IMG/VR virus record: IMGVR_UViG_3300009529_000008
Strand: one strand, 5' to 3'
DNA length: 20,000 bases
From: an uncultured virus (IMG/VR IMGVR_UViG_3300009529_000008)
Taxonomy: Duplodnaviria; Heunggongvirae; Uroviricota; Caudoviricetes
A model generated the notes under the pieces. That model saw only the letters and a program-made list of their open reading frames with translations. It did no database searches and was not told the DNA's origin. Each line of letters begins with the position of its first letter. Positions within the stretch are counted from its first letter, which is position 1. Both the position numbers and the translations under genes were made by a program. Below, one piece after another: positions 1,105-16,215 of this stretch.

Positions 1105-1911
1105 ATGCAAAAAGGAATTGTATTAGTCGCTATAATTATAGCGATAGGAATAAGCATAATTGGAGCGAGTAGCATCTTGTATTTCTGTTCTCCTTCTCCT
1201 ACTTCTAATCATATAGACTATATGAGTGAATTGCCAGAGAAACCCAGTGATTTTTATGTTGTTACAAGAGAAATACAATCGCACTATATAAATCTTTGTG
1301 AACTCGATGGTTCTTATTATTTACAACCCGAATTCTATGTACAGAGTTGGGAAAGAGGAAAACATTATTACGATTCCCACGATTATTCTCGGTGGGGCGT
1401 TCACGGTCACGGTGCTTATCCGGGAAACCCGCAAATATATTTCAACAATACTACACCAAACTCATGGATTTCGTTCTGCGTGTTCTACCGTACTGGTTGG
1501 AATATAGAAACATGGCAAGGGCTTAAACTAATAGCAGAAGAAAACGAGTATTTTGATGTGTACATAGAACCTGATGAATTTCTGTTAGAACCCACTTTCC
1601 CTGTTTTCAAAGAAGGATGGGCAAAGAAGTTAAAAATTACAGTGCTCATAAAGAAAACACCACCTAAAGGCACTTACAAAATTGCCATAAATGCTATTAA
1701 TCCATCCGAAGAAAAAGCTAAAGGATGGTTCTGGGAAGTTCTCAAACAGGAAACACAGACAAAAGAAGAGTTAGCAATGATAGAGCAGTGCGAACAACAA
1801 GGTATGTCCGTGCAATGCAAGGAATGGATTGAAACAGACAGAAAAAACAAATATGTGGATGCTGGGTTTATACAAGTAGGAAATAGACTATTGTTGGAAA
1901 TAAATGTATGA
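1105..1911 (+). CDS. N-terminally membrane-anchored hypothetical protein
   Basis: 268-aa ORF with GAGGAGG SD and an N-terminal hydrophobic helix; stop overlaps the next start (ATGA). Confidence 0.75.
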   Translation: MQKGIVLVAIIIAIGISIIGASSILYFCSPSPTSNHIDYMSELPEKPSDFYVVTREIQSHYINLCELDGSYYLQPEFYVQSWERGKHYYDSHDYSRWGVHGHGAYPGNPQIYFNNTTPNSWISFCVFYRTGWNIETWQGLKLIAEENEYFDVYIEPDEFLLEPTFPVFKEGWAKKLKITVLIKKTPPKGTYKIAINAINPSEEKAKGWFWEVLKQETQTKEELAMIEQCEQQGMSVQCKEWIETDRKNKYVDAGFIQVGNRLLLEINV

Positions 1912-2948
1912 ACAAAAATATTATTCGAGGAATATTTGCAGTTGCTTTGGTTGTTTGTTTTCTAATACAACCAATAGGGGGTGATTACGACAAATACAAT
2001 GTAAACTGGCGATTACCGTACAATATCACAGGTTATGTTCTGCACATCAATGGCACAGGAATAGAAAATGCTTATGTCCAGAATAATGTTACTACTGAAA
2101 CAAATTATTCTAGTATATCGGGTTATTATATCCTATCTGGAATAGAAGACAACTCAGTTTTGGTCACCACGAGTAAAACGGGTTATATAACTAATTCGAT
2201 AACCGTTAATGCAGATGGCAATTTAACATTATACAATCAAAACATAACACTTTCAGAGATGGTGTATGCACCAAACATAACATCATGGTGGAATAATTAC
2301 ACTTCTGATAATTCTACCAATTTCACCATTCCCCACGAGGACGAAAACAACCGCACGGTATTTTTTAATGTCACTGCTGACCAGGAAATAGATTATTGGG
2401 TATGGTACGTAGATGGTGAACTTTATCAAAATTCTTCTTCCGATAATATCACAAAAACATGGGACGAAGGAGGTGACAAAACCGTAAGTATTTATGGTAT
2501 CAACGCAAACGGGCAAACAAATACATTAACATGGAATATTGAAATAGAGTTTACAAGTTACGAATACGAAAAGCTTATATATGAACAGAACTTATTATTA
2601 TTGGAGGAAAATGAAATGATAGGACAAACTATGTTATTTGCGATACTTCTTATTATCGCTTTTGTATCCTTAGCGGTTGGCTATCTCTCACCAAATTCTC
2701 AATTTAAGATTTTCGGTGCCGCATTCTCATCGCTTTTATTTATCATTTTAGCGTATGCAATTATAGGCAATCAATTCGGTGAGAAATTGCAGATGGCATG
2801 GCTCGCTACACTTTTAGTTGCATTAGGTATTGTTCAGACAATTTATACATTATTAACAGTTATCAGCTTATTATATATGATGTTTGTATCGAAAGGGCAA
2901 GCGGGGATGAATAATATACCCTTTGACCCGTACGATGGAAAGTGGTAA
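1908..2948 (+). CDS. Glycosylated surface protein: signal peptide, carboxypeptidase-regulatory-like and PKD/Ig-like domains, ~3 C-terminal TM helices
   Basis: Motifs ITGYV...GIENAYV...GYYILSGI...SKTGY and WYVDGE...KTVSIYGIN; many sequons; hydrophobic C-terminus. Confidence 0.7.
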   Translation: MNKNIIRGIFAVALVVCFLIQPIGGDYDKYNVNWRLPYNITGYVLHINGTGIENAYVQNNVTTETNYSSISGYYILSGIEDNSVLVTTSKTGYITNSITVNADGNLTLYNQNITLSEMVYAPNITSWWNNYTSDNSTNFTIPHEDENNRTVFFNVTADQEIDYWVWYVDGELYQNSSSDNITKTWDEGGDKTVSIYGINANGQTNTLTWNIEIEFTSYEYEKLIYEQNLLLLEENEMIGQTMLFAILLIIAFVSLAVGYLSPNSQFKIFGAAFSSLLFIILAYAIIGNQFGEKLQMAWLATLLVALGIVQTIYTLLTVISLLYMMFVSKGQAGMNNIPFDPYDGKW

Positions 2949-3263
2949 TTACCTTCTTTTCTCTTCAGTAAAGCAATCCACCCCACGAACAACCAAAACT
3001 TGCCATGGTTTCATATCACATTCTTTAATAAGATAATTATTGTTATAAAATTTTACATGAATACCAAACCGCATAAAACATGTATGAACAAAAAAATTTG
3101 TTGGTTTTTTGAATGTAAATACTAATTTACCATCAAAATTTCTCTTAAACATTAATCCCAGTGTTCTTTTTAGAAATGTGTTCGCATATTCTATTTTGTA
3201 TCTCTCAAACATGCCTTGTGGTGCAACATTCTCCATGTCTACAATGAATTGTATGGGTATCAT
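2949..3263 (-). CDS. DUF192 family protein
   Basis: Motif EYANTFLKRTLGLMF...LVF.F......HTCFMRFGI.V.F matches the DUF192 pattern. Confidence 0.75.
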   Translation of the reverse strand: MIPIQFIVDMENVAPQGMFERYKIEYANTFLKRTLGLMFKRNFDGKLVFTFKKPTNFFVHTCFMRFGIHVKFYNNNYLIKECDMKPWQVLVVRGVDCFTEEKRR

Positions 3264-3356: not shown

Positions 3357-3692
3357 TTACTCACCACCTTTGCGTGAGAACATCATGAACAGCATCGGAA
3401 GTACGATTGCCATTATTCCCATCAGTGCGACTAACTTGTACATACTGAATCCCAATGCCACACCGCCTACTACATTGTAGTAAGATTCGTTCCACTTACT
3501 GTCGTTCGCTATCGTGATGACCTTATCAGTTTCACCTACGAGCATCATCATCACTGATCCAATTACCGCTGCCAGACCGAACAGGATTATCACGTACACT
3601 ATCGGATGATCCATGAAACCTCCGCCTATCTGTCCTTTCTTGTCCCTTTTTATCTTCCTCGCGTCTGTTAAAATTTCGTGTAGTTTACTCAT
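3357..3692 (-). CDS. Two-helix hydrophobic protein with basic class III-like leader; putative major capsid protein (spindle-virus type) or pilin
   Basis: Basic leader ending RDKKG|Q, two long hydrophobic helices separated by a short loop with sequons (NDS, NES), basic C-terminal tail, GGAGGTGA SD upstream. Confidence 0.65.
   Translation of the reverse strand: MSKLHEILTDARKIKRDKKGQIGGGFMDHPIVYVIILFGLAAVIGSVMMMLVGETDKVITIANDSKWNESYYNVVGGVALGFSMYKLVALMGIMAIVLPMLFMMFSRKGGE
3373..3461. repeat. 89-bp exact direct repeat, copy 1 (copy 2 at 4034-4122)
   Basis: Base-by-base identity from cgtgagaacatc to cccaatgccac; encodes the C-terminal helix of both paralogs. Confidence 0.95.
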
Positions 3693-3701
3693 TTTTCTTT
3701 T

Positions 3702-3968
3702 TCACCTCCCTCGCATTTTCATTGCAGCAAACATCAATGATAAAAATCCGAACATCGCCGCCAATATAAGAAATATTGTTGCTCCAGAAAGCATTGTAAA
3801 GCTTGTTTGTGTCATACCAACCGTTAGGGTGTATGTTTCGTTCAATCCAGATTCGTTAAGCGATGTTTGATTAATATTTTGGTCTATTGATGTTATACCA
3901 CTCATTGCTGCAAAGCTTAAGATACCCACTGCTACAAAAAGCATCAGGATACCTAATATTTTTATCAT
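3702..3968 (-). CDS. Two-TM hairpin protein with glycosylated loop; putative minor capsid/pilin-like subunit
   Basis: 88 aa; hydrophobic helix, loop with NQT/NES/NET, hydrophobic helix, basic tail; lies between the two paralogs. Confidence 0.65.
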   Translation of the reverse strand: MIKILGILMLFVAVGILSFAAMSGITSIDQNINQTSLNESGLNETYTLTVGMTQTSFTMLSGATIFLILAAMFGFLSLMFAAMKMRGR

Positions 3969-4017
3969 TTCTCTTCTCTCCGTTCGAGTAATTGTTTCTC
4001 TTTTGTTTGGTTATGTA

Positions 4018-4581
4018 CTACTCTTCCCTGCGTCGTGAGAACATCATGAACAGCATCGGAAGTACGATTGCCATTATTCCCATCAGTGCGACTAACTTGT
4101 ACATACTGAATCCCAATGCCACGCCACTGACGATATTGAGATAGCTTCCGTTCCACTTATTCTCATCGTATTTGTAGTCCACACCATAAGTTCCGTTAGT
4201 CCATGCAGTTATGTTCATCAATACATTATCACTTATATTATAGTGCGTGTCTTTCGTAAGTATCGTTCCTGGTGTACTAACATTGTACACACTTTCACTG
4301 TCGCCTTCTACATTTGCATGAGCAAGAGTATTTGTGTATGTATCTGAATTGTTTGTCCAGAACACCCATGACTCATTAGTTACTGAAGGTGTATCTAAGT
4401 TTGGTGCCACTACTTTATCTGTCTCGCCGACTATCATCATCATCACTGAGCCGATTATTGCTGCAAGCCCGAAGAGAATTATGACATACACAATGGGATG
4501 GTCTAAAAACCCCCCGCCTGCTTGTCCTCGCTTGTCTCTAATCACTCGAAAATTTGACTTATTTCTCTCTTTTCTAATCAA
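4018..4581 (-). CDS. Paralog of 3357..3692 with ~80-aa beta-rich glycosylated insertion between the helices; putative minor capsid/pilin
   Basis: Shares GGF.DHPIVYVIILFGLAA.IGSVMMM.VGETDKV and the C-terminal helix; leader ends RDKRG|Q. Start placed at TTG 4581 (GGAGTGA SD just upstream) rather than GTG 4638. Confidence 0.7.
   Translation of the reverse strand: MIRKERNKSNFRVIRDKRGQAGGGFLDHPIVYVIILFGLAAIIGSVMMMIVGETDKVVAPNLDTPSVTNESWVFWTNNSDTYTNTLAHANVEGDSESVYNVSTPGTILTKDTHYNISDNVLMNITAWTNGTYGVDYKYDENKWNGSYLNIVSGVALGFSMYKLVALMGIMAIVLPMLFMMFSRRREE
4034..4122. repeat. 89-bp exact direct repeat, copy 2
   Basis: Identical to 3373-3461 (offset 661 bp). Confidence 0.95.
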
Positions 4582-4661
4582 TGTTTCACTCCATAGCTTA
4601 AGATGCTCGGCTCGCTCTCTCGGCAAACAAAACACCACTAAAAAACTACATTATTTTCGTA

Positions 4662-4677
4662 CTATATAAAGCTTTCG
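4662..4677 (-). promoter_or_regulatory. Archaeal BRE-TATA promoter for the capsid/pilin-like genes
   Basis: - strand reads CGAAAGCTTTATATAG, nearly the same as the promoter at 12598-12612. Confidence 0.6.
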
Positions 4678-5144
4678 ATTATTAGAACTACAATCCACCC
4701 AATTGTTATGTGAGGTAAGAATGGTATTCCTCCTTTCTTTCGAGTAAATATAGTATATAATGCTCCTGATAATGAACTAAAAAACAAAATATTTAACGCT
4801 GTTATAGGAAAAGGCAGGAGGGGGAAGCAAAACGAAGAAGGGAAAGAGGGCAATGAGGTTGGATTGATAAAATAAGGATAGAGAATACTTAAACACAACA
4901 TTGCTTTAACATCAGCACCAGCGAACCACTCGAAACGATAGAAGGCAAACATTATAATTGACATCATGATAATAGAACAGAGTAACGGAACAAAAACAAA
5001 ATCTGTGATAAGAAACACCAACCCGACAATAATTAAAAAACTCCACACCTTATTACTTACTTCACCTCTTCTTATATCACTATAAGAAGCGTAAACTAAG
5101 CATATTGCTACAATAATGATTTTAATGAATTCTAAATCAAACAT
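4662..5144 (-). CDS. A24 family prepilin/preflagellin peptidase (PibD/FlaK-like GxGD-type aspartyl protease)
   Basis: Multi-TM protein with both catalytic Asp motifs (ASYSDIRRGEVSN and FAGADVKAM) and C-terminal IPFLPHITIG. Confidence 0.88.
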   Translation of the reverse strand: MFDLEFIKIIIVAICLVYASYSDIRRGEVSNKVWSFLIIVGLVFLITDFVFVPLLCSIIMMSIIMFAFYRFEWFAGADVKAMLCLSILYPYFINPTSLPSFPSSFCFPLLPFPITALNILFFSSLSGALYTIFTRKKGGIPFLPHITIGWIVVLIIESFI

Positions 5145-5179: not shown

Positions 5180-6431
5180 TCAGCCACGGGCAATGAGACC
5201 TCGTGCTTCAGCACGGGAAGGAATTGCTCTTTTCACCTCCTGTATTTTTCCTCTTGCATGTTCCAATAACTTCAACTTCTTGCAGTTTACTGACGCTCCT
5301 ATCTGGTTCCTCTCTATATCTCGCAAATCAAAGTAACCACTACTTCTTAATCCAAATATGAACCCTTTTACTTTTCCAAATAGCACTTTATCAAACCTCC
5401 TGAACCCGTTTACTTCTTTTACCGTGTTCCTCTTCCTTCTTCCACGCTTCAATAGATTGGCTTTAAACAAACTCCTGTTTTGCCTTCTTACTTGCTTTTC
5501 TTTGTAAAAAACATTTGCACGCACATGGTTACTGCTACCACCAGCAATTACAAACGCATCGTTAACATGGCTCTTTTCTAATCCCTGTTGAGTCCGCCCA
5601 AATTTTGTTATACTGCCATAAGTCCACCCGCAGTCTAACATATTCACAAGTTTCCACCTGATATTGTTCATAAACGTAGCAGCTCTTAACGGCTCTTTTG
5701 CCTTCTTTTGTATCCCTATATGCCCGAACTCCGCCGCGGTTTTGTTCCCCTTCTCTTGGTTGCATTTGTGACATGCAATTGTAAGATTAGAAACCCGGTC
5801 GCTACCGCCACGTGATTTCGGTACGATATGTTCTACTAGCACATTTTCTGTTCCACTTCTCCAGTAGATACTCTCTCACGGCATAGCCTCGTAACTCTCC
5901 TTGCTGGTATTCCATCCCGTTTATCTCCGGGTTCTGCATCTTCGCAGTATCAAAGCTCGCTACTTCTATTATCGTTTTCGTTATAGGTAGTATTCGCTTC
6001 AACCATTCTATCAACCGAATATGGCTTTGGAACTTATGTTCCAATGAGGGTGTTAACCAACCTTCTCCACGTCCTCGATTATCAAATCTCGCTTCACGAT
6101 GCCAGAGCCTATTTCTTCGCGTTCTACGATACATTCTTCTCTTATTCAACAGTCTTTTTATGTCGCTTCTCAATTCCAATTCGCCTGCTATTAATTCCCG
6201 GTTCGCTGTAATCGCACTATAACCGATATGCGAATAACCCGCGTCTATACCTAATATGATGTCCTGTCTGTTCTCTCCCGTTGCATATTTCAGTTGTATT
6301 GTGAATGGTTCTCGGCGAACTACTTTCGCTTTGCTTTCTTTTAGTATCTTGTTTGCTTTTCGCTGTGTCGTTGGCATCAGCGGCTCTCCACGCATATTCA
6401 CTACATAGACTACATTGTTCTGGACTCTCAA
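5180..6431 (-). pseudogene. iscB: IscB RNA-guided endonuclease, frameshifted by a deletion at the start of the HNH domain
   Basis: PLMP motif, RuvC-I GIDAG, bridge helix RRMYRRTRRNR and RuvC-II EVASFD in one frame; HNH ([12 protein letters not shown]...CHKCN) and RuvC-III (SHVNDA) in another. The break is at ~5837, where KCA joins VEHIVP without the usual YC...L segment. Start at TTG 6431 is inferred. Confidence 0.88.
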
Positions 6432-6673
6432 GTCAGAACTCCCTCTATGCTGGGAATGATGTTCCTCGGGATTGTTGGAAAGAGTTTTTGCATCGCGAGC
6501 ACCGCTCTTACCGCTTGGAGCTTTTAACCCTGCGACCACAGAGCCAGAAACTGGAACGGCATCTCTGGGTGTGATGCTACTTCCCAACTGCTGCGTATTT
6601 TTTTCTTGCATCCTTTACGCTCCCTAATCACGCAGAGACTTCATGCCTCGCCCTTCTGGACGGGGTGCGTGAC
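5181..6673 (-). mobile_element. Non-autonomous IS200/IS605-superfamily IscB (OMEGA) element, 1,493 bp
   Basis: Subterminal hairpins at 5200-5217 and 6646-6665. The - strand begins GTCACGCACCCC and is followed by ATGA at the far end. Removing it restores an ORF. No tnpA. Confidence 0.85.
6435..6673 (-). ncRNA. omegaRNA scaffold of the IscB element
   Basis: ~240-nt GC-richer, hairpin-forming region directly upstream of iscB, starting with the typical GTCA..CACCCC end; 3' boundary approximate. Confidence 0.75.
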
Positions 6674-6851
6674 TGAAGTAGGGAATAGTTGTATTCTCCC
6701 AATTAATATTATGCCTTGAAGTTATATTCCTTTGCTCCTCTAATTCCTCTTTCCATGTACCTTCTAAAAATAAACATGCAAACACTATCCATACAATTAT
6801 GGTAACAATGAACAATAGCACTTGAATTTGTTTTCGTCTTTTTTCGTTCAT
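6624..6851 (-). CDS. Small single-TM glycoprotein interrupted by the IscB element (native C-terminus at 5137-5180)
   Basis: The last 16 codons come from the element end. Joining 6674 to 5180 gives ...TIPYFNDSIMRNYTNKTNV*. Confidence 0.7.
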   Translation of the reverse strand: MNEKRRKQIQVLLFIVTIIVWIVFACLFLEGTWKEELEEQRNITSRHNINWENTTIPYFSHAPRPEGRGMKSLRD

Positions 6852-7462
6852 TTCTTTATTCTGCTCCCTCTTTGTAACACTATTCCGGCATCATTCAACC
6901 TTTTTTTAAGTGTTACATAACTCATACCCTGCATCTTTGCTATCTCTTTTAAGGTATAACCATCATTTATCGCCTTCTTAACTCTTTCTGTGTCTATTCT
7001 CACTTTTGGACGATGGCACAATTTTCCCTCTCGTTTCGCTCGTTTCATTCCTAATTCCGTTCTTACTTTGATAGTATCTATTTCAAATTCTGCTATGGAA
7101 CCTAATAGATTGAACAATAGCTTTCCTTCTGGCTTACTGGTATCCAAATGCTCGTGCATAGACAACAATTGCACATTATGCTCTTGGAGAAACTGTGTAG
7201 TAGTGTTTAAATCCATCAAACTCCTGCTCAGTCTATCAAATCGCCATACAAGTACTCCTTCAATACCGAAAGCATTTTTCTCAACGTCATTTAGCAATCT
7301 CTGAAAATCTTTTCTATCAGTGGTTAATCCACTTTCCTTATCCTTATATTCTGCCACTACTTCGTGGTTATACAATTCACAATACCTTTTTAACTCGTTT
7401 AACTGATCTTCGTTCGTTTTTTGTTCATCCGTGCTCACTCTTGCATAAATACCCACCTTCAT
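6848..7462 (-). CDS. Small serine recombinase (resolvase/invertase family) with C-terminal HTH
   Basis: YARVST catalytic motif, ESG...R..F, VWRFDRLSRS, DTS.P.GKL.F...GSIAEFE, RT..G...A...G; 204 aa. Confidence 0.93.
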   Translation of the reverse strand: MKVGIYARVSTDEQKTNEDQLNELKRYCELYNHEVVAEYKDKESGLTTDRKDFQRLLNDVEKNAFGIEGVLVWRFDRLSRSLMDLNTTTQFLQEHNVQLLSMHEHLDTSKPEGKLLFNLLGSIAEFEIDTIKVRTELGMKRAKREGKLCHRPKVRIDTERVKKAINDGYTLKEIAKMQGMSYVTLKKRLNDAGIVLQRGSRIKK

Positions 7463-7730: not shown

Positions 7731-8687
7731 TTATGTCATCATGTTACACGTACTCGCCTGCCTATCTTCGTCATCTCGCCATTTCCGATAACTTGCTCTG
7801 GTACACTGTTGTATTTTACATGCTTTTGTTTGACTGAGTCCTTCAACCATCATTTCTTCTACTCGTCCATATTTCCATTCATTAGGGTAGTCTGGTTTAA
7901 CTTTTGCCTTACTATCCCCATTGTTCTTATCATCATCCCCCTTCATACGTTCCTCCCTTAGCTTAGTCGCTGCCTCCCGCCTCACCACATCATATTCAGC
8001 ACTCAAAAATTTTGGAGGGGCAGGTGCTGCGTACCTGACTACTGCAATATCATTAACTGTTCGTGGATAGTGATAGTGGGGTGTATGTTCTCGTGGTTTA
8101 CTAACAACATAAAATACTTTTGGAAACACCCACCGATAATCAAACAGAGACATATCCATCTCTTGCTGATAGGTCACTAAATTTCTTGGAACTTTATCAA
8201 TCAAAAAGTCAGATATTATAGACATCATAACCACCGTATTTTCCGTTCTGAACACTTGGAACACATCGTTTAACATCTTATTTCCTTTAGACATAGCATC
8301 TCTGGCATTCCATGCTATCCCGATGTCATCGAAAGAATATATCCCATATTGTTTTACATCCGACAATACTTCTCTTACTTTTGAATCGTCCATTATAACT
8401 ATGTTTTCCATACCAAAGTAATCTTTCCACGACTTATTGTTCCCTTTCTTTTTATTTTGTATGCGAGCAATCTCACGAGCAATGGCATACCCTAACGTTA
8501 AGTTCAACCAACTTTTACCCTTACCCTGAGTTCCCACTGTTATTAAGCGTGCATCTTGATTATGTTTTGAAGTAACTTTACGAGCTATTTCAACCGCAAG
8601 TGGTTGTTTAGGTGTTTGATATATAAATCGGCTAAACTCATTTGCACCTTCTAAGACCATACGTTTAGAAACGTCTTGATATTTCAT
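7731..8687 (-). CDS. P-loop ATPase (viral morphogenesis/Zot-like) with C-terminal HTH-like tail
   Basis: Walker A GTQGKGKS, Walker B IYSFDD, downstream FR.EN...IDK..R segment; C-terminal GLSQTKACK...RASYRKW is HTH-like. Confidence 0.75.
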   Translation of the reverse strand: MKYQDVSKRMVLEGANEFSRFIYQTPKQPLAVEIARKVTSKHNQDARLITVGTQGKGKSWLNLTLGYAIAREIARIQNKKKGNNKSWKDYFGMENIVIMDDSKVREVLSDVKQYGIYSFDDIGIAWNARDAMSKGNKMLNDVFQVFRTENTVVMMSIISDFLIDKVPRNLVTYQQEMDMSLFDYRWVFPKVFYVVSKPREHTPHYHYPRTVNDIAVVRYAAPAPPKFLSAEYDVVRREAATKLREERMKGDDDKNNGDSKAKVKPDYPNEWKYGRVEEMMVEGLSQTKACKIQQCTRASYRKWRDDEDRQASTCNMMT

Positions 8688-9727: not shown

Positions 9728-10321
9728 TTAAACTTTTATGTTATCCCACCAGTTATATTCCTTATAAGAATGAAATTTAAGAACTTCGTATATTGTATCA
9801 TATAATCTGTCATAACTTCTATATCTTGCTTTACAATGTGTTATCTCCAAAGTAGTGCTTTCTATCGCAAAATCTCTTGTTTCGTTTTCGGATACCTTTA
9901 TATCCTTTACAACCACCCAAGCGTGCCGTTGCCCTCTCGATACTGCAATAAAGGCATGAAAACCCTCTTTTTCCAATGCCCATTCCAAATATGCACTCGC
10001 TTCGGAGCAGTCAAATGATTTTGTAGTAATTGGAGAAGATAACCATACGAGCTTCGTAGGATATTCAAAATTACCAATGAATCTGTTTAAATCACCAATT
10101 GTTTTATTTTCATAGCTTGAATTGTGAGTATAATAAGGATTCGGTACAGTACCTCTTTCTGATTGAATTGGTATTTGCCCGAAAAGAACGGATACAATAA
10201 CGATTGGAATAATAAAAACCAAAGCTACTCGTAGTACTTTAAGTTTCGATGGTTTATGAAATAATTCTTTTATACTCTTTTCCTCATAATGATAATCATA
10301 TACCTTTATTCTTATCTTCAT
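9728..10321 (-). CDS. Membrane-anchored transglutaminase-like (papain-fold) protein
   Basis: N-terminal TM; FDCSEAS (Cys), HAWVVV (His) and IEST (acidic) in catalytic-triad order. Confidence 0.7.
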   Translation of the reverse strand: MKIRIKVYDYHYEEKSIKELFHKPSKLKVLRVALVFIIPIVIVSVLFGQIPIQSERGTVPNPYYTHNSSYENKTIGDLNRFIGNFEYPTKLVWLSSPITTKSFDCSEASAYLEWALEKEGFHAFIAVSRGQRHAWVVVKDIKVSENETRDFAIESTTLEITHCKARYRSYDRLYDTIYEVLKFHSYKEYNWWDNIKV

Positions 10322-10453: not shown

Positions 10454-11287
10454 TCACACCACCATTGAAAGTATATATACTGCAATCCCAGCGCCAACTA
10501 AAATCATCATTATCATTGTACCATAAGCTAACAAATCCCCCTGACGATTTAACATTTCTCGTTTTGTATTTGCCTCAATTGTTGCCTGCATGTTTGCTTC
10601 GCTCGCTGCAGTTTCAGGGTTTAACACAACATTTGCAATATTTTGAAATACCATCTCACCTTCGGTTATTTTTAATCCCTCACTACCATCTTCTTTACTA
10701 CCTGCAACTTCTTCTCGTATTTCTTTAATTCTATTCCATAAATCGGGATTTTCAACAACCAAGTAATTTCTATCATTTATAATTTCTTCTTCGGGACGCG
10801 CCAAGAACATATACGCTATCTCTCTTTTATTGCTATCCAAGCTCAGTTCTGGATACTGCTCCGCTAATTGATTTATTGCCCTAACTCCCATCGGATTTAT
10901 CGCACTGGGTAACGGCGGTACAAAGTGAACAATTGGTAAACCACGTACGGAATGTTCTACAGTTTTTGTCCTCTCTTCGGGAATGAATTTAAAGTCACCG
11001 CCTGCATACCAATTCGGTGGTTTCATATCCTTTTTCACTTTCTCTCGTTCACCTACTTTGAATCTACATCGCATATTAGCGTAGTGATCCATTATAACAT
11101 CCAAATTATTTTTACGTGCATCCCTGAATATCAATCCTTCAGGCGAAAACTTTTTAAATGACCACTGTTGATATACTGCATATGTACCCATTGCAGAAGC
11201 CATCATCATTGCTGCAATAGTAAGCCATACAAACCAATCTGGTACTACCATATAACCAGGTGGGATAGCTACAGCCGTTCTAATCAC
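10454..11287 (-). CDS. Hypothetical membrane protein (N- and C-terminal TM helices)
   Basis: 277 aa, GGGGGTGA SD, overlaps the upstream gene. Confidence 0.78.
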   Translation of the reverse strand: MIRTAVAIPPGYMVVPDWFVWLTIAAMMMASAMGTYAVYQQWSFKKFSPEGLIFRDARKNNLDVIMDHYANMRCRFKVGEREKVKKDMKPPNWYAGGDFKFIPEERTKTVEHSVRGLPIVHFVPPLPSAINPMGVRAINQLAEQYPELSLDSNKREIAYMFLARPEEEIINDRNYLVVENPDLWNRIKEIREEVAGSKEDGSEGLKITEGEMVFQNIANVVLNPETAASEANMQATIEANTKREMLNRQGDLLAYGTMIMMILVGAGIAVYILSMVV

Positions 11288-11564
11288 CCCCTTTCCACTT
11301 TTGAACTAACTTCTTCAAACTACCCATTTCTTTATATTGTTCTTGCATCTTCATAAACTCATCTTTTAGGACAAGATAATAAATAGCTAGATAACTAATA
11401 AAACTGAACGTAAGGATAATAAAATGTAATTGTAAAAAACCATTATCTCCGCCTTTTACTAAACTTAAAAACGAGTGCATTGCAATAATAGCCATACCAA
11501 AAAAAATAGCTATCCACACTTTAAGGCAATTTTTCTTCATTTTTTTTATTTTCCTGATAACCAA
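11280..11564 (-). CDS. Small two-TM hypothetical protein
   Basis: Two hydrophobic segments; overlaps both neighbours; start may be an internal ATG (MKKN). Confidence 0.65.
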   Translation of the reverse strand: MVIRKIKKMKKNCLKVWIAIFFGMAIIAMHSFLSLVKGGDNGFLQLHFIILTFSFISYLAIYYLVLKDEFMKMQEQYKEMGSLKKLVQKWKGGD

Positions 11565-12082
11565 TCAAATAAACCTTTTTTTCCACTTCGCGTTTCTTTT
11601 TCGCCTGGCATTCCACCTTGTTCTTGTCGTACTATCGTTGTTGCTAATAATCTTGCTCCATGTGCTCCCCTTCCTTTTCTTGTTTGTATCTCTGCACCAT
11701 ATCGTGCCATGCCCACATAAAAATTGTTTTTTTGATTCCTGTCAATTTTATAGCCAGTGTGCCAGAATCGTTGTTCATTGAGACTTTCCAATCCAATAAT
11801 TGATTTTCTATCTTCTTCGGTGGTGTAATAACCCAGTGCAACAGCACGTCCCGAAGCACTTGTAATTAGCGAAATAAGATTGGCTTTCATTGATTGAGAC
11901 ATCCGCGCATCGCCACCAATAAGTCCACATACGTACTCCATTTCACTAAATCGAGAAGCCTCTAATATCGTTTTGTATTGTTCAACCCTGATTTCATCAC
12001 TTAAATTAACGGGTGGTTCTTGACATTCATCCACTTCTTCCTGTACTTCTTCTTCTTCTTCCTGTACTTCTTCTTCACTCAT
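11546..12082 (-). CDS. Hypothetical protein with Glu-rich repetitive N-terminus
   Basis: 178-aa ORF; EEEVQEE repeated with a 21-bp period at the N-terminus. Confidence 0.75.
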   Translation of the reverse strand: MSEEEVQEEEEEVQEEVDECQEPPVNLSDEIRVEQYKTILEASRFSEMEYVCGLIGGDARMSQSMKANLISLITSASGRAVALGYYTTEEDRKSIIGLESLNEQRFWHTGYKIDRNQKNNFYVGMARYGAEIQTRKGRGAHGARLLATTIVRQEQGGMPGEKETRSGKKGLFDWLSGK

Positions 12083-12168
12083 TTTCTTTTTCTGTTAGTG
12101 ATGATAATTCCGCTTTCAACTTTCTCTTTCTCTCCAGTTTTTTCGCTTCTATTTGTTGCCTTTTCCTC

Positions 12169-12420
12169 TCATCTTATTGGTTTTATAAATGAAAAACGCT
12201 TTTTCCTCTCTATTTTTGTCTTCTCACAACTAACTTTACCAAAATATTCTTCCGTCAATTCAATAATTCTGTCTTTCACTACTCGCTTCTCTATATCCAA
12301 AATAGTGCTTTTTGCAGGTACGAGAGCAGAATCCTCAGCAAGCTTTGACATCAGTTGTTCTAACTCAGTATTCTTCTTCAACACTATTAAAACATCTTCA
12401 ACATAGTCTTTCAGTTGCAT
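12169..12420 (-). CDS. Hypothetical protein
   Basis: 83 aa, GAGGAGG SD, TGATG overlap with the upstream RHH gene. Confidence 0.7.
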   Translation of the reverse strand: MQLKDYVEDVLIVLKKNTELEQLMSKLAEDSALVPAKSTILDIEKRVVKDRIIELTEEYFGKVSCEKTKIERKKRFSFIKPIR

Positions 12421-12560
12421 CAGTTCTTTTCCTCCTCTTTTTTATTTTTTATTAAATCCTCCAATAAATTCCTCACTTTTTCTGAGAGGTTGAAGACTCT
12501 CGGCTGTTCTTGTATCCACTCATATTGCTCTTTCGTAACAGTAATTTGAACCGCTTTCAT
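12420..12560 (-). CDS. Ribbon-helix-helix (CopG-like) DNA-binding protein, 46 aa
   Basis: MKAVQITVTKEQYEWIQEQPRVFNLSEKVRNLLEDLI: alternating beta strand plus two helices with NLS..VR; GAGGTTGA SD; not in the ORF track. Confidence 0.75.
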   Translation of the reverse strand: MKAVQITVTKEQYEWIQEQPRVFNLSEKVRNLLEDLIKNKKEEEKN

Positions 12561-12597
12561 TATTGTCAACCTCGATAACAATATATAGTGATAAGGG

Positions 12598-12612
12598 TAT
12601 ATAAACCTTTCG
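12598..12612 (-). promoter_or_regulatory. BRE-TATA promoter of the leftward operon
   Basis: - strand CGAAAGGTTTATATA, ~38 nt upstream of the RHH start. Confidence 0.7.
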
Positions 12613-12642
12613 ATTATTTTCAGAAATAAACTATCCTTACAC

Positions 12643-12668
12643 CCGATAAACTTTAAACCTTTATATAG
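12643..12668 (+). promoter_or_regulatory. Divergent BRE-TATA promoter of the rightward operon
   Basis: CCGATAAACTTTAAACCTTTATATAG; TATA-like boxes 22-35 nt before ATG 12690 (leaderless spacing). Confidence 0.55.
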
Positions 12669-12689
12669 AATGAACTTTATTATATTACT

Positions 12690-12821
12690 ATGATAGAAGA
12701 TATAAGAACTAAGAAAATTGTAAGGGGAAATAAAATAAGAAAGCGAAAGCGATTGGAGAGAGAACTGGAAGAAGTTAATAAGGAAATTGAAGTATTAGAT
12801 AAAGAGATAGAAAGTAAATAA
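12690..12821 (+). CDS. 43-aa basic/coiled-coil protein
   Basis: MIEDIRTKKIVRGNKIRKRKRLERELEEVNKEIEVLDKEIESK*; ends 1 nt before the helicase ATG. Confidence 0.6.
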   Translation: MIEDIRTKKIVRGNKIRKRKRLERELEEVNKEIEVLDKEIESK

Positions 12822-12822
12822 A

Positions 12823-13968
12823 ATGGAAAAAATAGAACTCTTAGCATGGCAAACAGAAGCATTTAAAAACTGGATAAAGAACAAAGGGCAGGGATATGTC
12901 GAAGCACCGACCGGTAGCGGTAAAACTTTTGTAGGTTTGAAACTAATAGAAAAAGAAAAACTATCTCCTTTTCTTATTGTCGTACCAACAATCGAACTGT
13001 TATCACAATGGAAAAACCATATAAAAAAGTATTATCCCGATACAGTAATAACCAGTATAGGCGACGGTGAGAAGTATAATGGTTATACCAATACTCTCGA
13101 CCCCTGTTCTAAAAGAGTTACGATAGCAATAATAAATTCTATACGCAAACACAAACTTAATGTAAAAACATTAATATTAGACGAAATTCATCATTACTCT
13201 TCTCTCGCACCTGTAAATTATAAAATATGGGATAATATTAAATGTAAATACATTCTTGGTTTGAGTGCTACCCCTATCCCGGAACGAATAAGTAAAGAAG
13301 ATGTAGGCTGGAATATCCCACAAGTATATCAATATTCACTACAACAAGCCTATAACGATGGTACTTTACTAAAACCAGAAATTATAAAGAAAGGGGTACA
13401 TTTAGAAGAAAATGAACAAAATGAATATGACATTTTAACTGATAAAATAAAGTCCAAAATGGGTACGTTTGAAAGTTTCAATAATGCACCATTTTATTTC
13501 AAGGGTTGGGTATTTGATAGGAATGAAATTTTATTTGGAAGTAATAGAAAGATAGATACAGTAATAGACATTCTTACCCATAGCAATTTTAAGAAGGCTA
13601 TAATTTTCACAGAGCGAATTGATACTGCTCAAAGAATATCACGAGAAATAAGTGGTTTGGGAATTTTTGAAGAATACTGTCTTCACAGCGGAATAAAAAA
13701 GAAGATGCGTAAAGAAGCAGTAAACAAATTCATCGAAACAACTTTACCATGTATTATCACGACCGCACACCTTTTCGAGGAAGGGATGGATGTCCCGGAC
13801 ATAGATATGATTATATTACATTCATTCAATAATACGAAACGGGAATCACTGCAACGCATTGGACGTTCTTTGCATAATAAAACCGTTACTCCTAAAATTT
13901 ATATTTTGTATTACGAAAATACAAAGGAGAATTATGCAGCAAAAAAGATTGAGAGGTTGTTTCTATGA
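12823..13968 (+). CDS. Superfamily 2 DExH helicase (XPB/Rad25-like)
   Basis: Q motif WQ, motif I APTGSGKT, Ia VVPTIEL, II DEIH, III SAT, V EGMDVP, VI QRIGR. Confidence 0.92.
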   Translation: MEKIELLAWQTEAFKNWIKNKGQGYVEAPTGSGKTFVGLKLIEKEKLSPFLIVVPTIELLSQWKNHIKKYYPDTVITSIGDGEKYNGYTNTLDPCSKRVTIAIINSIRKHKLNVKTLILDEIHHYSSLAPVNYKIWDNIKCKYILGLSATPIPERISKEDVGWNIPQVYQYSLQQAYNDGTLLKPEIIKKGVHLEENEQNEYDILTDKIKSKMGTFESFNNAPFYFKGWVFDRNEILFGSNRKIDTVIDILTHSNFKKAIIFTERIDTAQRISREISGLGIFEEYCLHSGIKKKMRKEAVNKFIETTLPCIITTAHLFEEGMDVPDIDMIILHSFNNTKRESLQRIGRSLHNKTVTPKIYILYYENTKENYAAKKIERLFL

Positions 13969-14117
13969 AACTAACCCAAAAAGAAGTATCAAATATAATT
14001 TATGATGCGTGCAAAAATTGGGACATTAATTGGATGACGAGATATTTTGCTGATGAAGTAGCAAAAGAAATTAGGAGAAGAGAGAATAAAAAATGGATAA
14101 AGAAAAGGAAAAACTGA
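13965..14117 (+). CDS. Hypothetical 50-aa protein
   Basis: MKLTQKEVSNIIYDACKNW...; GAGGT SD and ATGA overlap with the helicase stop. Confidence 0.55.
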   Translation: MKLTQKEVSNIIYDACKNWDINWMTRYFADEVAKEIRRRENKKWIKKRKN

Positions 14118-14407
14118 AGGAAGCATATAAGATATATTCAGAAAGAGTAACACAACTTTGGAACAAACTCATAGAGAAGTATGGTTTTGATGAACAAACA
14201 GCACTAACAATTATAGCAAATTTTTGGTATGAACCTGATGAAGCAGAGAAATTCGAGGAAGAATGGATTGATAGTAGTGATGAAATAAGAAATGAAATAG
14301 AGAAGCAGTTTAATGTGTCTATTGAACACGAAGAAGAGATGATTACAGTAAGAAATGAAAATTTTGTGTATGATGGAGTAATGATTATTGAAGAAGAGGA
14401 ATATTAA
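14093..14407 (+). CDS. Acidic hypothetical protein
   Basis: 104-aa ORF in the operon. Confidence 0.7.
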   Translation: MDKEKEKLKEAYKIYSERVTQLWNKLIEKYGFDEQTALTIIANFWYEPDEAEKFEEEWIDSSDEIRNEIEKQFNVSIEHEEEMITVRNENFVYDGVMIIEEEEY

Positions 14408-14410
14408 GAA

Positions 14411-14686
14411 ATGAAAGTAAAAAATAGTTATAAATTTTTGTCTTGTATCTTCATTTTAGTAGTCAGTTTTTCTTTAAGTATTTATACTATAGGATTAGGT
14501 CAAGAGAAACTTATAGAAGATTTAAAAGATTGTGAACCAGGAATATATAATGTGATTCCAATTAATATTTGGTATATGTTACTATCTTTTGCTATTATGT
14601 TAGTAGGTGTTTTTCTAATAGCAATTGTTTTGGGCTTTTTAAAAGGAGGAGAAAAATCAATTGAATGTTTCTACAGACCAAAATAA
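14411..14686 (+). CDS. Small two-TM hypothetical protein
   Basis: 91 aa with two hydrophobic segments; starts 3 nt after the upstream stop. Confidence 0.65.
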   Translation: MKVKNSYKFLSCIFILVVSFSLSIYTIGLGQEKLIEDLKDCEPGIYNVIPINIWYMLLSFAIMLVGVFLIAIVLGFLKGGEKSIECFYRPK

Positions 14687-14730
14687 TAAAGATTTATATG
14701 GAATGTTTTTATTTATAGATATATAGAAAA

Positions 14731-14862
14731 ATGAAAACAAAAGTAATAAGCATAAGGGAAGAGCAAGACGAATGGTTGCAGAAACATAGGAGTATTAACC
14801 TATCTGGATTTGTGCAGGAGAAATTAGATATATTAATAAGAAAAATGGAGAAGAAAGAATGA
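14731..14862 (+). CDS. Ribbon-helix-helix DNA-binding protein, 43 aa
   Basis: MKTKVISIREEQDEWLQKHRSINLSGFVQEKLDILI; similar to 12420..12560 (EQ.EW.Q....NLS..V); TATA-like AAAGATTTATATG ~32 nt upstream. Confidence 0.75.
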   Translation: MKTKVISIREEQDEWLQKHRSINLSGFVQEKLDILIRKMEKKE

Positions 14863-14959
14863 GTGAAATATATAAAGTAGAGATAAAAGGAACAAGACCT
14901 TTGTTGATGAACTCATGTAGACACATGATAGAAAAATTTAGGAAATAGGATTTTATCAA

Positions 14960-15280
14960 ATGACTACTCATAAAAGTACATGGAAGCAATTAGAAAGAGA
15001 TATTTGTAAGGAGTTCGGAGGAAAAAGAACACCATTAAGTGGAAATCGAAGTGGGCATAATACTTCTTCTGATTGTATTGCTGTAAACCCAGAGTTTTTA
15101 AACTTTTATATTGAAATTAAGCTCAGAGCATCTTATTTACACCACAGAATTTTTAATGAAATTAAAAAAAAAGCAAAAGACGAAAAGAAAGTGCCTTTGT
15201 TTATTACGCGAGAGAAAAACAAAAAACAAAAATTGATTATTTTGAGAATGGAAGACTTTTTGGAGTTGATAAAGAAATGA
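14960..15280 (+). CDS. PD-(D/E)XK nuclease, Holliday-junction-resolvase-like
   Basis: WKQLER...R.PLSG...SD......IEIK motif order; 106 aa. Confidence 0.75.
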   Translation: MTTHKSTWKQLERDICKEFGGKRTPLSGNRSGHNTSSDCIAVNPEFLNFYIEIKLRASYLHHRIFNEIKKKAKDEKKVPLFITREKNKKQKLIILRMEDFLELIKK

Positions 15281-16215
15281 AAATAAATGTTCTAAGTTTA
15301 TTCGATGGAATGTCCTGCGGGCAAATAGCACTTAGAAGAGCGGGGATAGAATATGATAATTATTTCGCTTCGGAAATAGATAAATATGCAATTCAAATCA
15401 CACAAAAGAACTATCCAGATACTATACAATTGGGTGATATTCATAATATTGAAATAGAAAAATTACCAAAAATTAAGTTATTGCTCGGTGGTAGTCCCTG
15501 TCAATCATTATCAATAGCAAAAAGACAAAAAGAAAGTGGACTGAAAAAAGGACAATCTATTTTATTTTGGGATTATATGAGGATTTTGAATACAATAAAA
15601 CCGAGATATTTCTTATTTGAAAATGTAGCATCCATGAAAAAAACAGATAGAGATTTAATAAGTAATAGTTTAGGTGTTGAACCTATTTTAATAAATTCTG
15701 CTCTTCTAACGGCACAACAACGAAAAAGATATTATTGGACAAATATTGAAGAAGTAGAACAACCAAAAGATAAAGAAATATACTTAAAAGATATACTCGA
15801 AAAGGGTTACACAGAAAAGTTAAAAAGTTATTGCATCACTGCAACATATTCACGAGCTTGTCCACAAAACTATTTCTTTCATGAAGAAAGACAACTTATA
15901 TTTAATAAACCTGTTAGAGTAGGTACTATCGGTAAAGGTGGACAGGCAGAAAGAATTTATTATATCAGTGGTAAAAGTATATGTTTAAATGCAAATGGTG
16001 GTGGAATGGGTGCAAAAACAGGACTATATGAAATTAAAGAACATATTAGAAGACTAACACCTATTGAATGTGAACGATTACAAACAGTTCCTGACAATTA
16101 TACAAGTTTAAGAAAAGAAGGTAAAGAATTAATGAGTGATACACAACGATATAAAATGCTCGGAAATGGTTTTACGGTTGATGTAATAGTACATATTCTA
16201 AAGTATTTAAAATAG
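15277..16215 (+). CDS. DNA (cytosine-5)-methyltransferase
   Basis: Motif I LSLFDG, IV GGSPCQ, VI FENV, VIII QQRKR, IX RRLTP.ECERLQ, X LGNG. Confidence 0.93.
   Translation: MKINVLSLFDGMSCGQIALRRAGIEYDNYFASEIDKYAIQITQKNYPDTIQLGDIHNIEIEKLPKIKLLLGGSPCQSLSIAKRQKESGLKKGQSILFWDYMRILNTIKPRYFLFENVASMKKTDRDLISNSLGVEPILINSALLTAQQRKRYYWTNIEEVEQPKDKEIYLKDILEKGYTEKLKSYCITATYSRACPQNYFFHEERQLIFNKPVRVGTIGKGGQAERIYYISGKSICLNANGGGMGAKTGLYEIKEHIRRLTPIECERLQTVPDNYTSLRKEGKELMSDTQRYKMLGNGFTVDVIVHILKYLK

Follow-up and report, generated by a model that had tools for sequence, protein, structure and literature searches.

A candidate prepilin-type peptidase and its putative two-helix substrates in a large uncultured mobile element

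Introduction

Peptidases of family A24, which include FlaK, PibD and EppA (MEROPS A24B), cut their substrates at the cytoplasmic face of the membrane. In canonical class III signal peptides, the hydrophobic helix begins directly after the cut. Here, we analyzed a stretch of 20,000 nucleotides (nt), called the window below, from the uncultured virus record IMG/VR IMGVR_UViG_3300009529_000008; it represents 20 kb of a contig of ~78.6 kb. The window is part of a large uncultured mobile element, most likely a virus, and the host of this element is probably an archaeon. Its minus strand encodes an A24 peptidase and, directly downstream, three paralogous two-helix proteins (hairpins), two of which carry basic leaders that are candidate substrates of this enzyme. 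Throughout the text, an arrow marks a cut, as in [KR]G↓Q.

The coat protein VP1 of the fusellovirus SSV1 is made as a precursor (..NPKLTKG↓EATNIGVLLG..). Behind the junction lie two helices, separated by a loop that has the sequons NLT and NAT, and the C-terminal residues KIYKD; the N-terminal Glu of the mature protein was mapped. Iverson et al. 2017 (PMC5748691) describe the protease that matures VP1 as unknown and SSV1 as having no recognizable protease gene. Moreover, the virus is no longer infectious when the five residues preceding the cut are deleted, and a primer listed in the same source encodes PKLTRG for SSV9. Prepilin peptidases borne by mobile elements are known from thaumarchaeal integrative-conjugative elements (ICEs), where they accompany pilins and secretion ATPases (PMC6563490), the set comprising VirB4, VirD4, FlaI, TadC and true pilins. 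In a body of literature that misses most subscription journals, no publication came up in which the maturation of an archaeal virus coat protein is connected with an A24 peptidase. A preprint on Dehalococcoides IME1 elements speaks of VP1-like proteins without naming a peptidase.

Results

An intact A24 peptidase gene precedes three hairpin genes

A sequence-only reading of this DNA had described an A24 peptidase with both catalytic Asp motifs, followed by three two-helix hydrophobic proteins, and had proposed that the virus matures its capsid protein with its own peptidase. The features concerned are the following.

4662 to 5144, minus strand: minimal A24 (FlaK/PibD-type) aspartic peptidase, 160 amino acids (aa), catalytic residues D23 and D78
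4018 to 4581, minus strand: long hairpin paralogue, 187 aa, from a most likely TTG start at 4581; open reading frame (ORF) open to 4638
3702 to 3968, minus strand: middle hairpin paralogue, 88 aa, starting MIKILGILMLF.., without leader, with three sequons in the loop
3357 to 3692, minus strand: short hairpin paralogue, 111 aa, leader MSKLHEILTDARKIKRDKKG↓Q, predicted mature form of 91 aa
4663 to 4675, minus strand: motif AAAGCTTTATATA, resembling a B recognition element (BRE) and TATA box, within the 3' end of the A24 gene and ~25 nt upstream of the long-hairpin ORF

The description of the peptidase was borne out. The A24 ORF matched Pfam family Peptidase_A24 (PF01478) with 48.9 bits against a cut-off of 26.5 (E 9.9e-13; model positions 1-104 of 104) and, at E 6.4e-4, could be aligned with FlaK, a preflagellin peptidase of known structure (3S0X). 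In this alignment, D23 (..SYSDIRRGE..) and D78 (..FAGADVK..) stand opposite the two catalytic Asp residues of FlaK. We found 12 close homologues of the peptidase, and both Asp residues were invariant in 13/13 A24 homologues (61 to 100% identity). About five hydrophobic segments were observed in the protein (residues 1-24, 28-72, 104-123 and 138-160). The window enzyme is thus like FlaK, PibD and EppA in its Pfam family, its Asp positions and its multi-pass membrane layout. In contrast to FlaK, which has 237 aa in 3S0X, it has 160 aa and lacks the extra soluble domain; moreover, it is encoded on a mobile element beside hairpin proteins and not beside pilins or archaellins. With the NCBIfam model FlaK_Arch (NF040695), the ORF reached 25.4 bits against a cut-off of 330. 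By these scores, it is classed as a member of family A24 and not as a FlaK orthologue. A scan of IMG/VR with the A24 sequence gave as its sole match a stretch of 25 residues in an unrelated phage (L007), which is due to chance.

Downstream of the A24 gene, three ORFs on its strand (4018-4638, 3702-3968 and 3357-3692) each encode two long hydrophobic segments, as had been described. The long protein begins with a leader (M-IRKERNKSNFRVIRDKRG↓Q); its two helices are separated by a loop of 95 residues, and its C-terminus reads RREE. Its gene most likely starts at TTG 4581, which would give a leader of 20 residues: this codon is preceded by GGAGTGA, and the resulting 187 aa equal the size of the homologues P0006 and P0007. 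The two reported leader ends, RDKRG↓Q and RDKKG↓Q, were recovered in the long and in the short protein, respectively (..VIRDKRG↓QAGGGFLDHP.. and ..KIKRDKKG↓QIGGGFMDHP.., both leaders being about 20 residues long). The short and long proteins share 69% identity in the region of the leader plus first helix and 80% in the second helix; after helix 1, the long form has ~95 extra residues and the short form a loop of 18 residues. The middle protein is a divergent paralogue of both (family-profile hmmsearch, E 6.9e-6; hhalign probability 88.6% over 78 columns). An AlphaFold2 (AF2) model of the short hairpin, with a mean pLDDT of 62, placed helices at residues 3-21, 30-59 and 67-110.

At the DNA level, the short and long genes are 89% identical in the halves encoding the second helix (3373-3503 vs 4034-4164) and 76% identical in those encoding the first (3520-3647 vs 4412-4539), which suggests a recent duplication or gene conversion. 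The BRE/TATA-like motif is part of a 21-nt repeat common to the operon head at 12598-12618, and it was counted 9 times against 2.31 expected (0/200 shuffles reached 9). The motif suggests that the hairpin genes have a putative promoter of their own, which would suit separately boosted expression.

The leader junction is invariant and leaderless relatives start near it

A word-indexed search of 5.8 billion clusters returned 8 hairpin-family proteins, and an HMMER profile search of 1.84 billion representatives gave 12 matches at E <= 0.001. All family members are metagenomic, and all have the second C-terminal transmembrane (TM) helix. One of the 12 matches, a 790-aa repeat protein (P0046) that matched profile positions 5-34 in nine stretches and is likely a false positive, was left out of all alignments. 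G20 and Q21 were invariant in 9/9 aligned close homologues, with the remaining leader being variable. Three more distant leader-bearing relatives end in ..DKRGQ (P0041), ..GKAGQ (P0048) and ..DTRGQ (P0050). Six leaderless relatives (P0043, P0044, P0045, P0049, P0051 and P0052) have their N-terminus 5 to 11 residues ahead of the conserved H-P at the opening of helix 1; in P0043, P0045 and P0052, this distance is exactly 10 residues (M-x4-F-M-x-H-P), as it is from Q21 to P30. Since these leaderless kin begin at about the predicted mature N-terminus, the leader looks like a removable add-on.

Both the long and the short hairpin have a short basic leader ending in [KR]-[GA], as class III leaders do, and the net charge of the leaders is +4 to +6. 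The loop of the long paralogue has 7 N-x-S/T sequons against 3.0 expected (22/2000 shuffles reached 7). In the distant relatives P0044, P0045 and P0049, the observed and expected numbers were 21 vs 4.6, 17 vs 3.5 and 16 vs 7.6, and 0/2000 shuffles reached each of these counts. Because the leaders are basic and the loops are enriched in sequons, the termini are predicted to lie inside and the loop outside. On this topology, the [KR]G↓Q junction would therefore lie on the cytoplasmic side of the membrane, which is the side on which A24 enzymes cut. The substrates of EppA have a cut resembling the proposed [KR]-G↓, with Gln at +1.

We thus propose that the long and short hairpins would insert in the host membrane with the leader and C-terminus in the cytoplasm and the N-glycosylated loop facing outward. 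On the cytoplasmic side, the A24 peptidase of the element would then cleave them behind the invariant [KR]-G, so that the leader of ~20 residues would be released and Gln would become the N-terminal residue. Judged from the intact enzyme, the invariant junction, the leaderless starts, the predicted topology and the adjacency of the genes, we consider it rather probable that the element's own A24 enzyme processes the hairpin leaders. Cofolding of the A24 protein with hairpin residues 1-62 reached a score of 0.02, the mark being 0.32; this is no usable answer and was counted neither way.

The gene order recurs in related contigs

The A24 and hairpin genes belong to a codirectional cluster of ~9.5 kb on the minus strand (~12,580 down to 2,949). 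This cluster ends, in order, with a small membrane protein, the A24 peptidase, the three paralogous two-helix proteins and a DUF192 protein. Several homologues of the cluster proteins lie on related metagenome contigs of 38 to 79 kb. L001, a JGI contig of 46,459 nt, matches the window gene for gene from 12,441 down to 2,949, including a 78-aa TM protein, A24, the long, middle and short hairpins and DUF192. In L003, we observed the 78-aa protein, A24 and the long hairpin; L002 has the middle hairpin (also kept in L001), the short hairpin and DUF192, plus a homologue of a 346-aa surface protein of the window. The A24 gene is retained intact beside the hairpin genes in every relative in which the region is visible, and A24 matches and hairpin matches fall on equally sized contigs (65,991 and 1,440 nt). 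The arrangement is not due to chance, as G20 and Q21 are invariant in the 9 close homologues aligned and the gene order recurs in L001, L002 and L003. The recurring linkage for which the sequence-only reading had suggested a survey was thus found, with A24, long, middle and short hairpin in L001 and parts of this order in L002 and L003. It was found in one lineage. Atlas neighbors of two cluster proteins mostly bear viral labels; this labeling is automatic, and the evidence is weak.

Several points weigh against processing of the hairpins by the A24 enzyme. All linkage loci are close relatives (A24 identity of at least 61%), so they represent one lineage and not independent recurrences. In the second catalytic motif, A-G-A-D, an Ala stands instead of a Gly before the Asp, where the FlaK alignment has G-G-D. 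In addition, 8 to 10 residues separate the proposed cut from the start of the hydrophobic helix, which thus does not begin directly at the cut. The mature N-terminus had been called polar; the stretch proved to be Gly-rich and mixed and not simply polar. Since 20 kb of ~78.6 kb are visible, genes for assembly or conjugation could lie elsewhere on the contig.

Such genes matter for a different view of the locus, in which the hairpins are filament subunits of an integrative or conjugative element (VirB2/TraA/CedA1/TedC-like or of an unusual type IV-like pilus), matured by its prepilin peptidase. The hairpin shape matches VirB2-type pilins, and the window has a resolvase and plasmid-like replication genes. 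Archaeal ICEs are reported to carry a prepilin peptidase and pilins, and the thaumarchaeal ICEs and the window element are alike in being mobile elements with their own prepilin peptidase; however, of the VirB4, VirD4, FlaI, TadC and true pilins of these ICEs, none was found in the window DNA visible (PMC6563490). Indeed, PilB/FlaI, PilC/TadC and VirB4-type Pfam families were detected in 0/33 window ORFs scanned, in line with the earlier statement that no PilB/PilC-type genes occur in the window. VirD4 was likewise found in 0/33, and all four families were found in 0/20 further ORFs of L001, L002 and L004. The predicted topology, in which the termini lie inside and the glycosylated loop lies outside, and the inserts of up to ~500 residues are the reverse of VirB2-type pilins, in which a short loop lines the lumen. 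The VirB2/CedA1-like pilus that had been offered as an alternative fits these properties poorly, and we consider filament subunits of this kind very unlikely. A true type IV pilus was rejected, as it fails on the second TM helix and as the T2SSE and T2SSF families are absent among the 33 and 20 ORFs.

A convergent operon encodes further candidate substrates

Next to the cluster, a convergent operon on the plus strand (3-530, 572-1081, 1105-1911 and 1908-2948) encodes secreted or surface proteins. The ORF at 3-530, truncated by the end of the window, encodes a protein with a LamG domain, and 572-1081 encodes a 169-aa protein that shares the C-terminal beta-rich module of the LamG protein. The proteins of this operon may be fibers or adhesins of the element. 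Two of them, which the sequence-only reading had passed over, have canonical class III-like N-termini.

1105 to 1911, plus strand: 268-aa protein, class III-like N-terminus MQKG↓IVLVAIIIAIG, no family matched
1908 to 2948, plus strand: 346-aa surface protein, ..NIIRG↓IFAVALVV, with an Ig-like/PKD-like middle and C-terminal TM segments

By their N-termini, the 268-aa and 346-aa proteins may be further candidate A24 substrates. The A24 enzyme might even serve these two operon proteins in place of the hairpins, which would then be uncleaved two-pass membrane proteins with basic N-termini that simply follow the positive-inside rule. In both operon proteins, the hydrophobic stretch comes directly after [KR]G, which is nearer to the textbook substrate than the hairpins are, and the 346-aa protein is kept beside DUF192 in L002 (phmmer E 1.5e-103). 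However, this view leaves unexplained the invariance of G-Q (9/9), its retention in the distant leader-bearing relatives and the leaderless starts near +1. Moreover, L001 keeps A24 and the hairpins and has glycosylation genes at the place of the operon. Since A24 and the hairpins are thus maintained without the convergent operon, the 268-aa and 346-aa proteins are disfavored as the only substrates, and we consider that the hairpins escape cleavage in this way distinctly unlikely. Cleavage of the operon proteins and cleavage of the hairpins can both hold.

The genes of L001 at this place (11088-13690) encode a UDP-glucose/GDP-mannose dehydrogenase, an FkbM methyltransferase and a family 2 glycosyltransferase, beside DUF192. 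These sugar-modification genes could glycosylate the sequon-rich hairpin loops.

The hairpins resemble spindle virus coat proteins in layout

The window hairpins and SSV1 VP1 have in common a basic residue, a Gly and then a Glu or Gln at the junction, followed by few polar residues, two hydrophobic helices, a loop with sequons and a short charged C-terminus. As for VP1 and VP3 in SSV1, leader-bearing and leaderless paralogues are found side by side, and an ATPase of the B251 type is present in both elements. A two-helix hairpin with a sequon-enriched turn was obtained by prediction (AF2 model with pLDDT of 62, hydrophobic segments). His1 VP21 (PF25665) and the His1-MCP-like (major capsid protein-like) proteins of ANME-1 spindle viruses are also like the hairpins in size and layout. 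In contrast to SSV1, for which PMC5748691 reports no recognizable protease, the window element encodes an A24 enzyme, and the related contigs exceed the genome of SSV1 3- to 5-fold in length.

By this analogy, the mature hairpins and the leaderless middle paralogue would be abundant structural subunits of the element's particle. This particle would have a spindle-type or pleomorphic coat of membrane-inserted hairpins, on which the long paralogue would display a glycosylated surface domain. A coat or structural role of the hairpins is plausible, although we place it slightly short of an even call. For the A24 cut and a structural role taken together, any structural role in the virion being allowed, we regard the case as evenly balanced. 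The proposal that the virus matures its capsid protein with its own peptidase is thus retained for the processing, and for the capsid by analogy, since the homology tests were negative or below threshold.

In these tests, no homology to known spindle virus capsid proteins could be detected. The comparison that had been suggested for the hairpins, with SSV1 VP1 and the His1 capsid protein, gave no link in Foldseek or hhalign. The hhalign probabilities were 2.0% for SSV1 VP1, 2.3% for SSV1 VP3 and 8.6% for His1 VP21, and VP1 and VP3 have no detectable sequence or profile similarity to the hairpins. In hmmsearch, the spindle capsid proteins reached at most 3.5 bits, which is below the best of 3000 shuffles per protein (9.6 to 13.9 bits). 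Searching the Protein Data Bank (PDB) by Foldseek with the short-hairpin model gave 0 matches, and VIA-align with the same low-confidence model returned generic helical hairpins only (best Z 8.3). No Pfam or PHROG match at E <= 0.01 was found for the window hairpins, and loop inserts of 350 to 500 residues, as in P0044, P0045 and P0049, are unusual for a major capsid protein. Furthermore, the hairpin family was absent from IMG/VR scans made with the hairpins, as were matches in scans with the ATPase and DUF192, and tblastn against INPHARED with the ATPase, the long hairpin, A24 and P0045 gave no match. The INPHARED set searched is without the ANME-1 virus records OP880254 and OP413839, so that these blanks leave kinship with these viruses possible. 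A GTDB scan with the hairpins and a PLSDB scan with the ATPase also gave nothing. A phmmer comparison of all window ORFs with all SSV1 and His1 ORFs yielded one chance match, in a non-gene frame.

Faint and non-significant matches to capsid families were observed for P0043 (PF25665 His1_capsid, E 3.2), P0052 (phrog_11172, E 0.51) and P0048 (phrog_16261, E 0.014). A resemblance of P0043 to His1 VP21 (..SSWN.. loop motif, L-x-x-L-[VL]-P-L helix start; BLASTP E 2e-4 in a single comparison) failed in profile tests and was not used as evidence.

The undetectable homology to spindle major capsid proteins would also suit hairpins that are cleaved by A24 but belong to the envelope or membrane of a plasmid vesicle or of a pleomorphic virus resembling pleolipoviruses. 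The very large Cys- and sequon-rich loop ectodomains of some relatives look spike-like, and the ATPase class of the window occurs in other archaeal virus groups as well. However, the short form, with its 18-residue loop and almost no ectodomain, fits a packing subunit better than a spike, and PHROGs gave no pleolipovirus-like matches. This view differs from the spindle-type coat proposed above in the kind of particle only, and we consider it unlikely.

In the distant relatives P0044, P0045 and P0049, domains of 350 to 500 residues rich in Cys and N-x-S/T occupy the turn between the helices. P0045 and the short P0047 appear on one contig of 10,329 nt; if so, this colocation means that the pairing of a long and a short form recurs in the leaderless branch.

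The cluster encodes an ATPase of the kind found in SSV1 and His1

7731 to 8687, minus strand: P-loop ATPase with a C-terminal helical, helix-turn-helix-like tail, of the SSV1 B251/His1 ORF16 kind

Among PHROGs, this ATPase matched families (E 3.3e-5 and 1.2e-4) whose name, "DnaA-like replication initiation protein", is also used in the records of SSV1 B251 and His1 ORF16. By hhalign, the probability was 84% for SSV1 B251 (E 7.3e-6) and 49% for His1 ORF16. Comparison of its AF2 model (pLDDT 64.5) with BFVD gave 9 entries at E <= 0.001, with low TM-scores of 0.22 to 0.44; ORF286 of ATV ranked 10th (E 1.0e-3) and a Nitrosopumilus spindle-shaped virus protein 16th (E 2.0e-3). We found 20 homologues of the ATPase, and its profile retrieved nothing from the PDB sequences.

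In a study of the ANME-1 virome (PMC9894754, Supplementary Table 10), the spindle-type votanvirus IMGVR0294848 (candidate family Votanviridae) is annotated with the gene order _05 AAA+ ATPase, _06 Fusello-like MCP, _07, _08 DUF192. Compared by annotation alone, this order parallels the ATPase, hairpins and DUF192 of the window. The supplementary files of the same source give a prepilin or A24 annotation for no virus, and four peptide motifs of the window element were absent from its sequence supplements.

If the A24 cut is true, the shared [KR]G↓ cut site would imply that the protease acting on fusellovirus VP1 (..LTKG↓E) is a host prepilin peptidase of the PibD type. The finding is of real interest because the question of the SSV1 VP1 protease becomes directly testable: an A24 gene beside hairpins with [KR]G↓ junctions offers a concrete and cheap test both of cutting by the neighboring enzyme and of PibD on VP1. 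Tolerance of glycosylated turn domains of 95 to 500 residues bears on how such coats display receptor-binding parts. A broader reading is that the related contigs of 38 to 79 kb form a new large archaeal virus family with hairpin coats matured by the virus A24 enzyme, that the VP1 protease is a host PibD-type enzyme, and that spindle and pleomorphic archaeal viruses generally borrow the pilin maturation step to free coat subunits from the membrane; in this full extent, we hold it to be doubtful.

Other genes of the window and of a contig with a related ATPase

Further features of the cluster are as follows.

6624 to 6851, minus strand: 75-aa single-pass membrane protein, homologues at L001 8301-8537 and L003 383-619
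5180 to 6673, minus strand: IscB insertion with HEARO/omega RNA, PF14239 (RRXRR) 209 bits, HNH families
2949 to 3263, minus strand: DUF192 protein, last gene of the cluster, PF02643 29.5 bits against a cut-off of 27

In the relatives, the homologues of the 75-aa membrane protein lie directly before the A24 gene and overlap it. In the window, the IscB insertion, which is not found in L001 or L003, sits between these two genes, and it has replaced the C-terminal end of the 75-aa protein. Its RNA part at 6454-6673 reached 101.8 bits with Rfam against a gathering score of 83. Because the coding sequence of IscB is split over two frames that overlap (5802-6611 and 5180-5842), it appears to be frameshifted or misassembled. 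The position of DUF192 after the short hairpin is kept in L001 and L002. At the place of the window's serine resolvase gene (6848-7462), L001 has other genes. In a 197-aa membrane-anchored protein (9728-10321, minus strand), a C..H..D arrangement looked transglutaminase-like by eye; Pfam and PDB sequence searches gave no support.

A GTDB scan with the ATPase retrieved L004, a contig of 4.1 kb whose ATPase is 71% identical to that of the window. It is assigned to a Shapirobacteria (bacterial) metagenome-assembled genome, so that it may be misbinned. A24 and [KR]G↓Q leaders were absent from the 3.5 kb visible, on a contig too short to count as a test. Downstream, L004 encodes two small, unrelated proteins of 98 and 107 aa with two TM segments each (782-1782), as well as a coiled-coil protein longer than 650 aa.

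On the plus strand of the window, a divergent arm (12823-16215) encodes a superfamily 2 helicase (ResIII/DEAD), a C5 cytosine methyltransferase (152 bits) and a Holliday-junction-resolvase-like protein (phrog_2002, E 4.3e-9).

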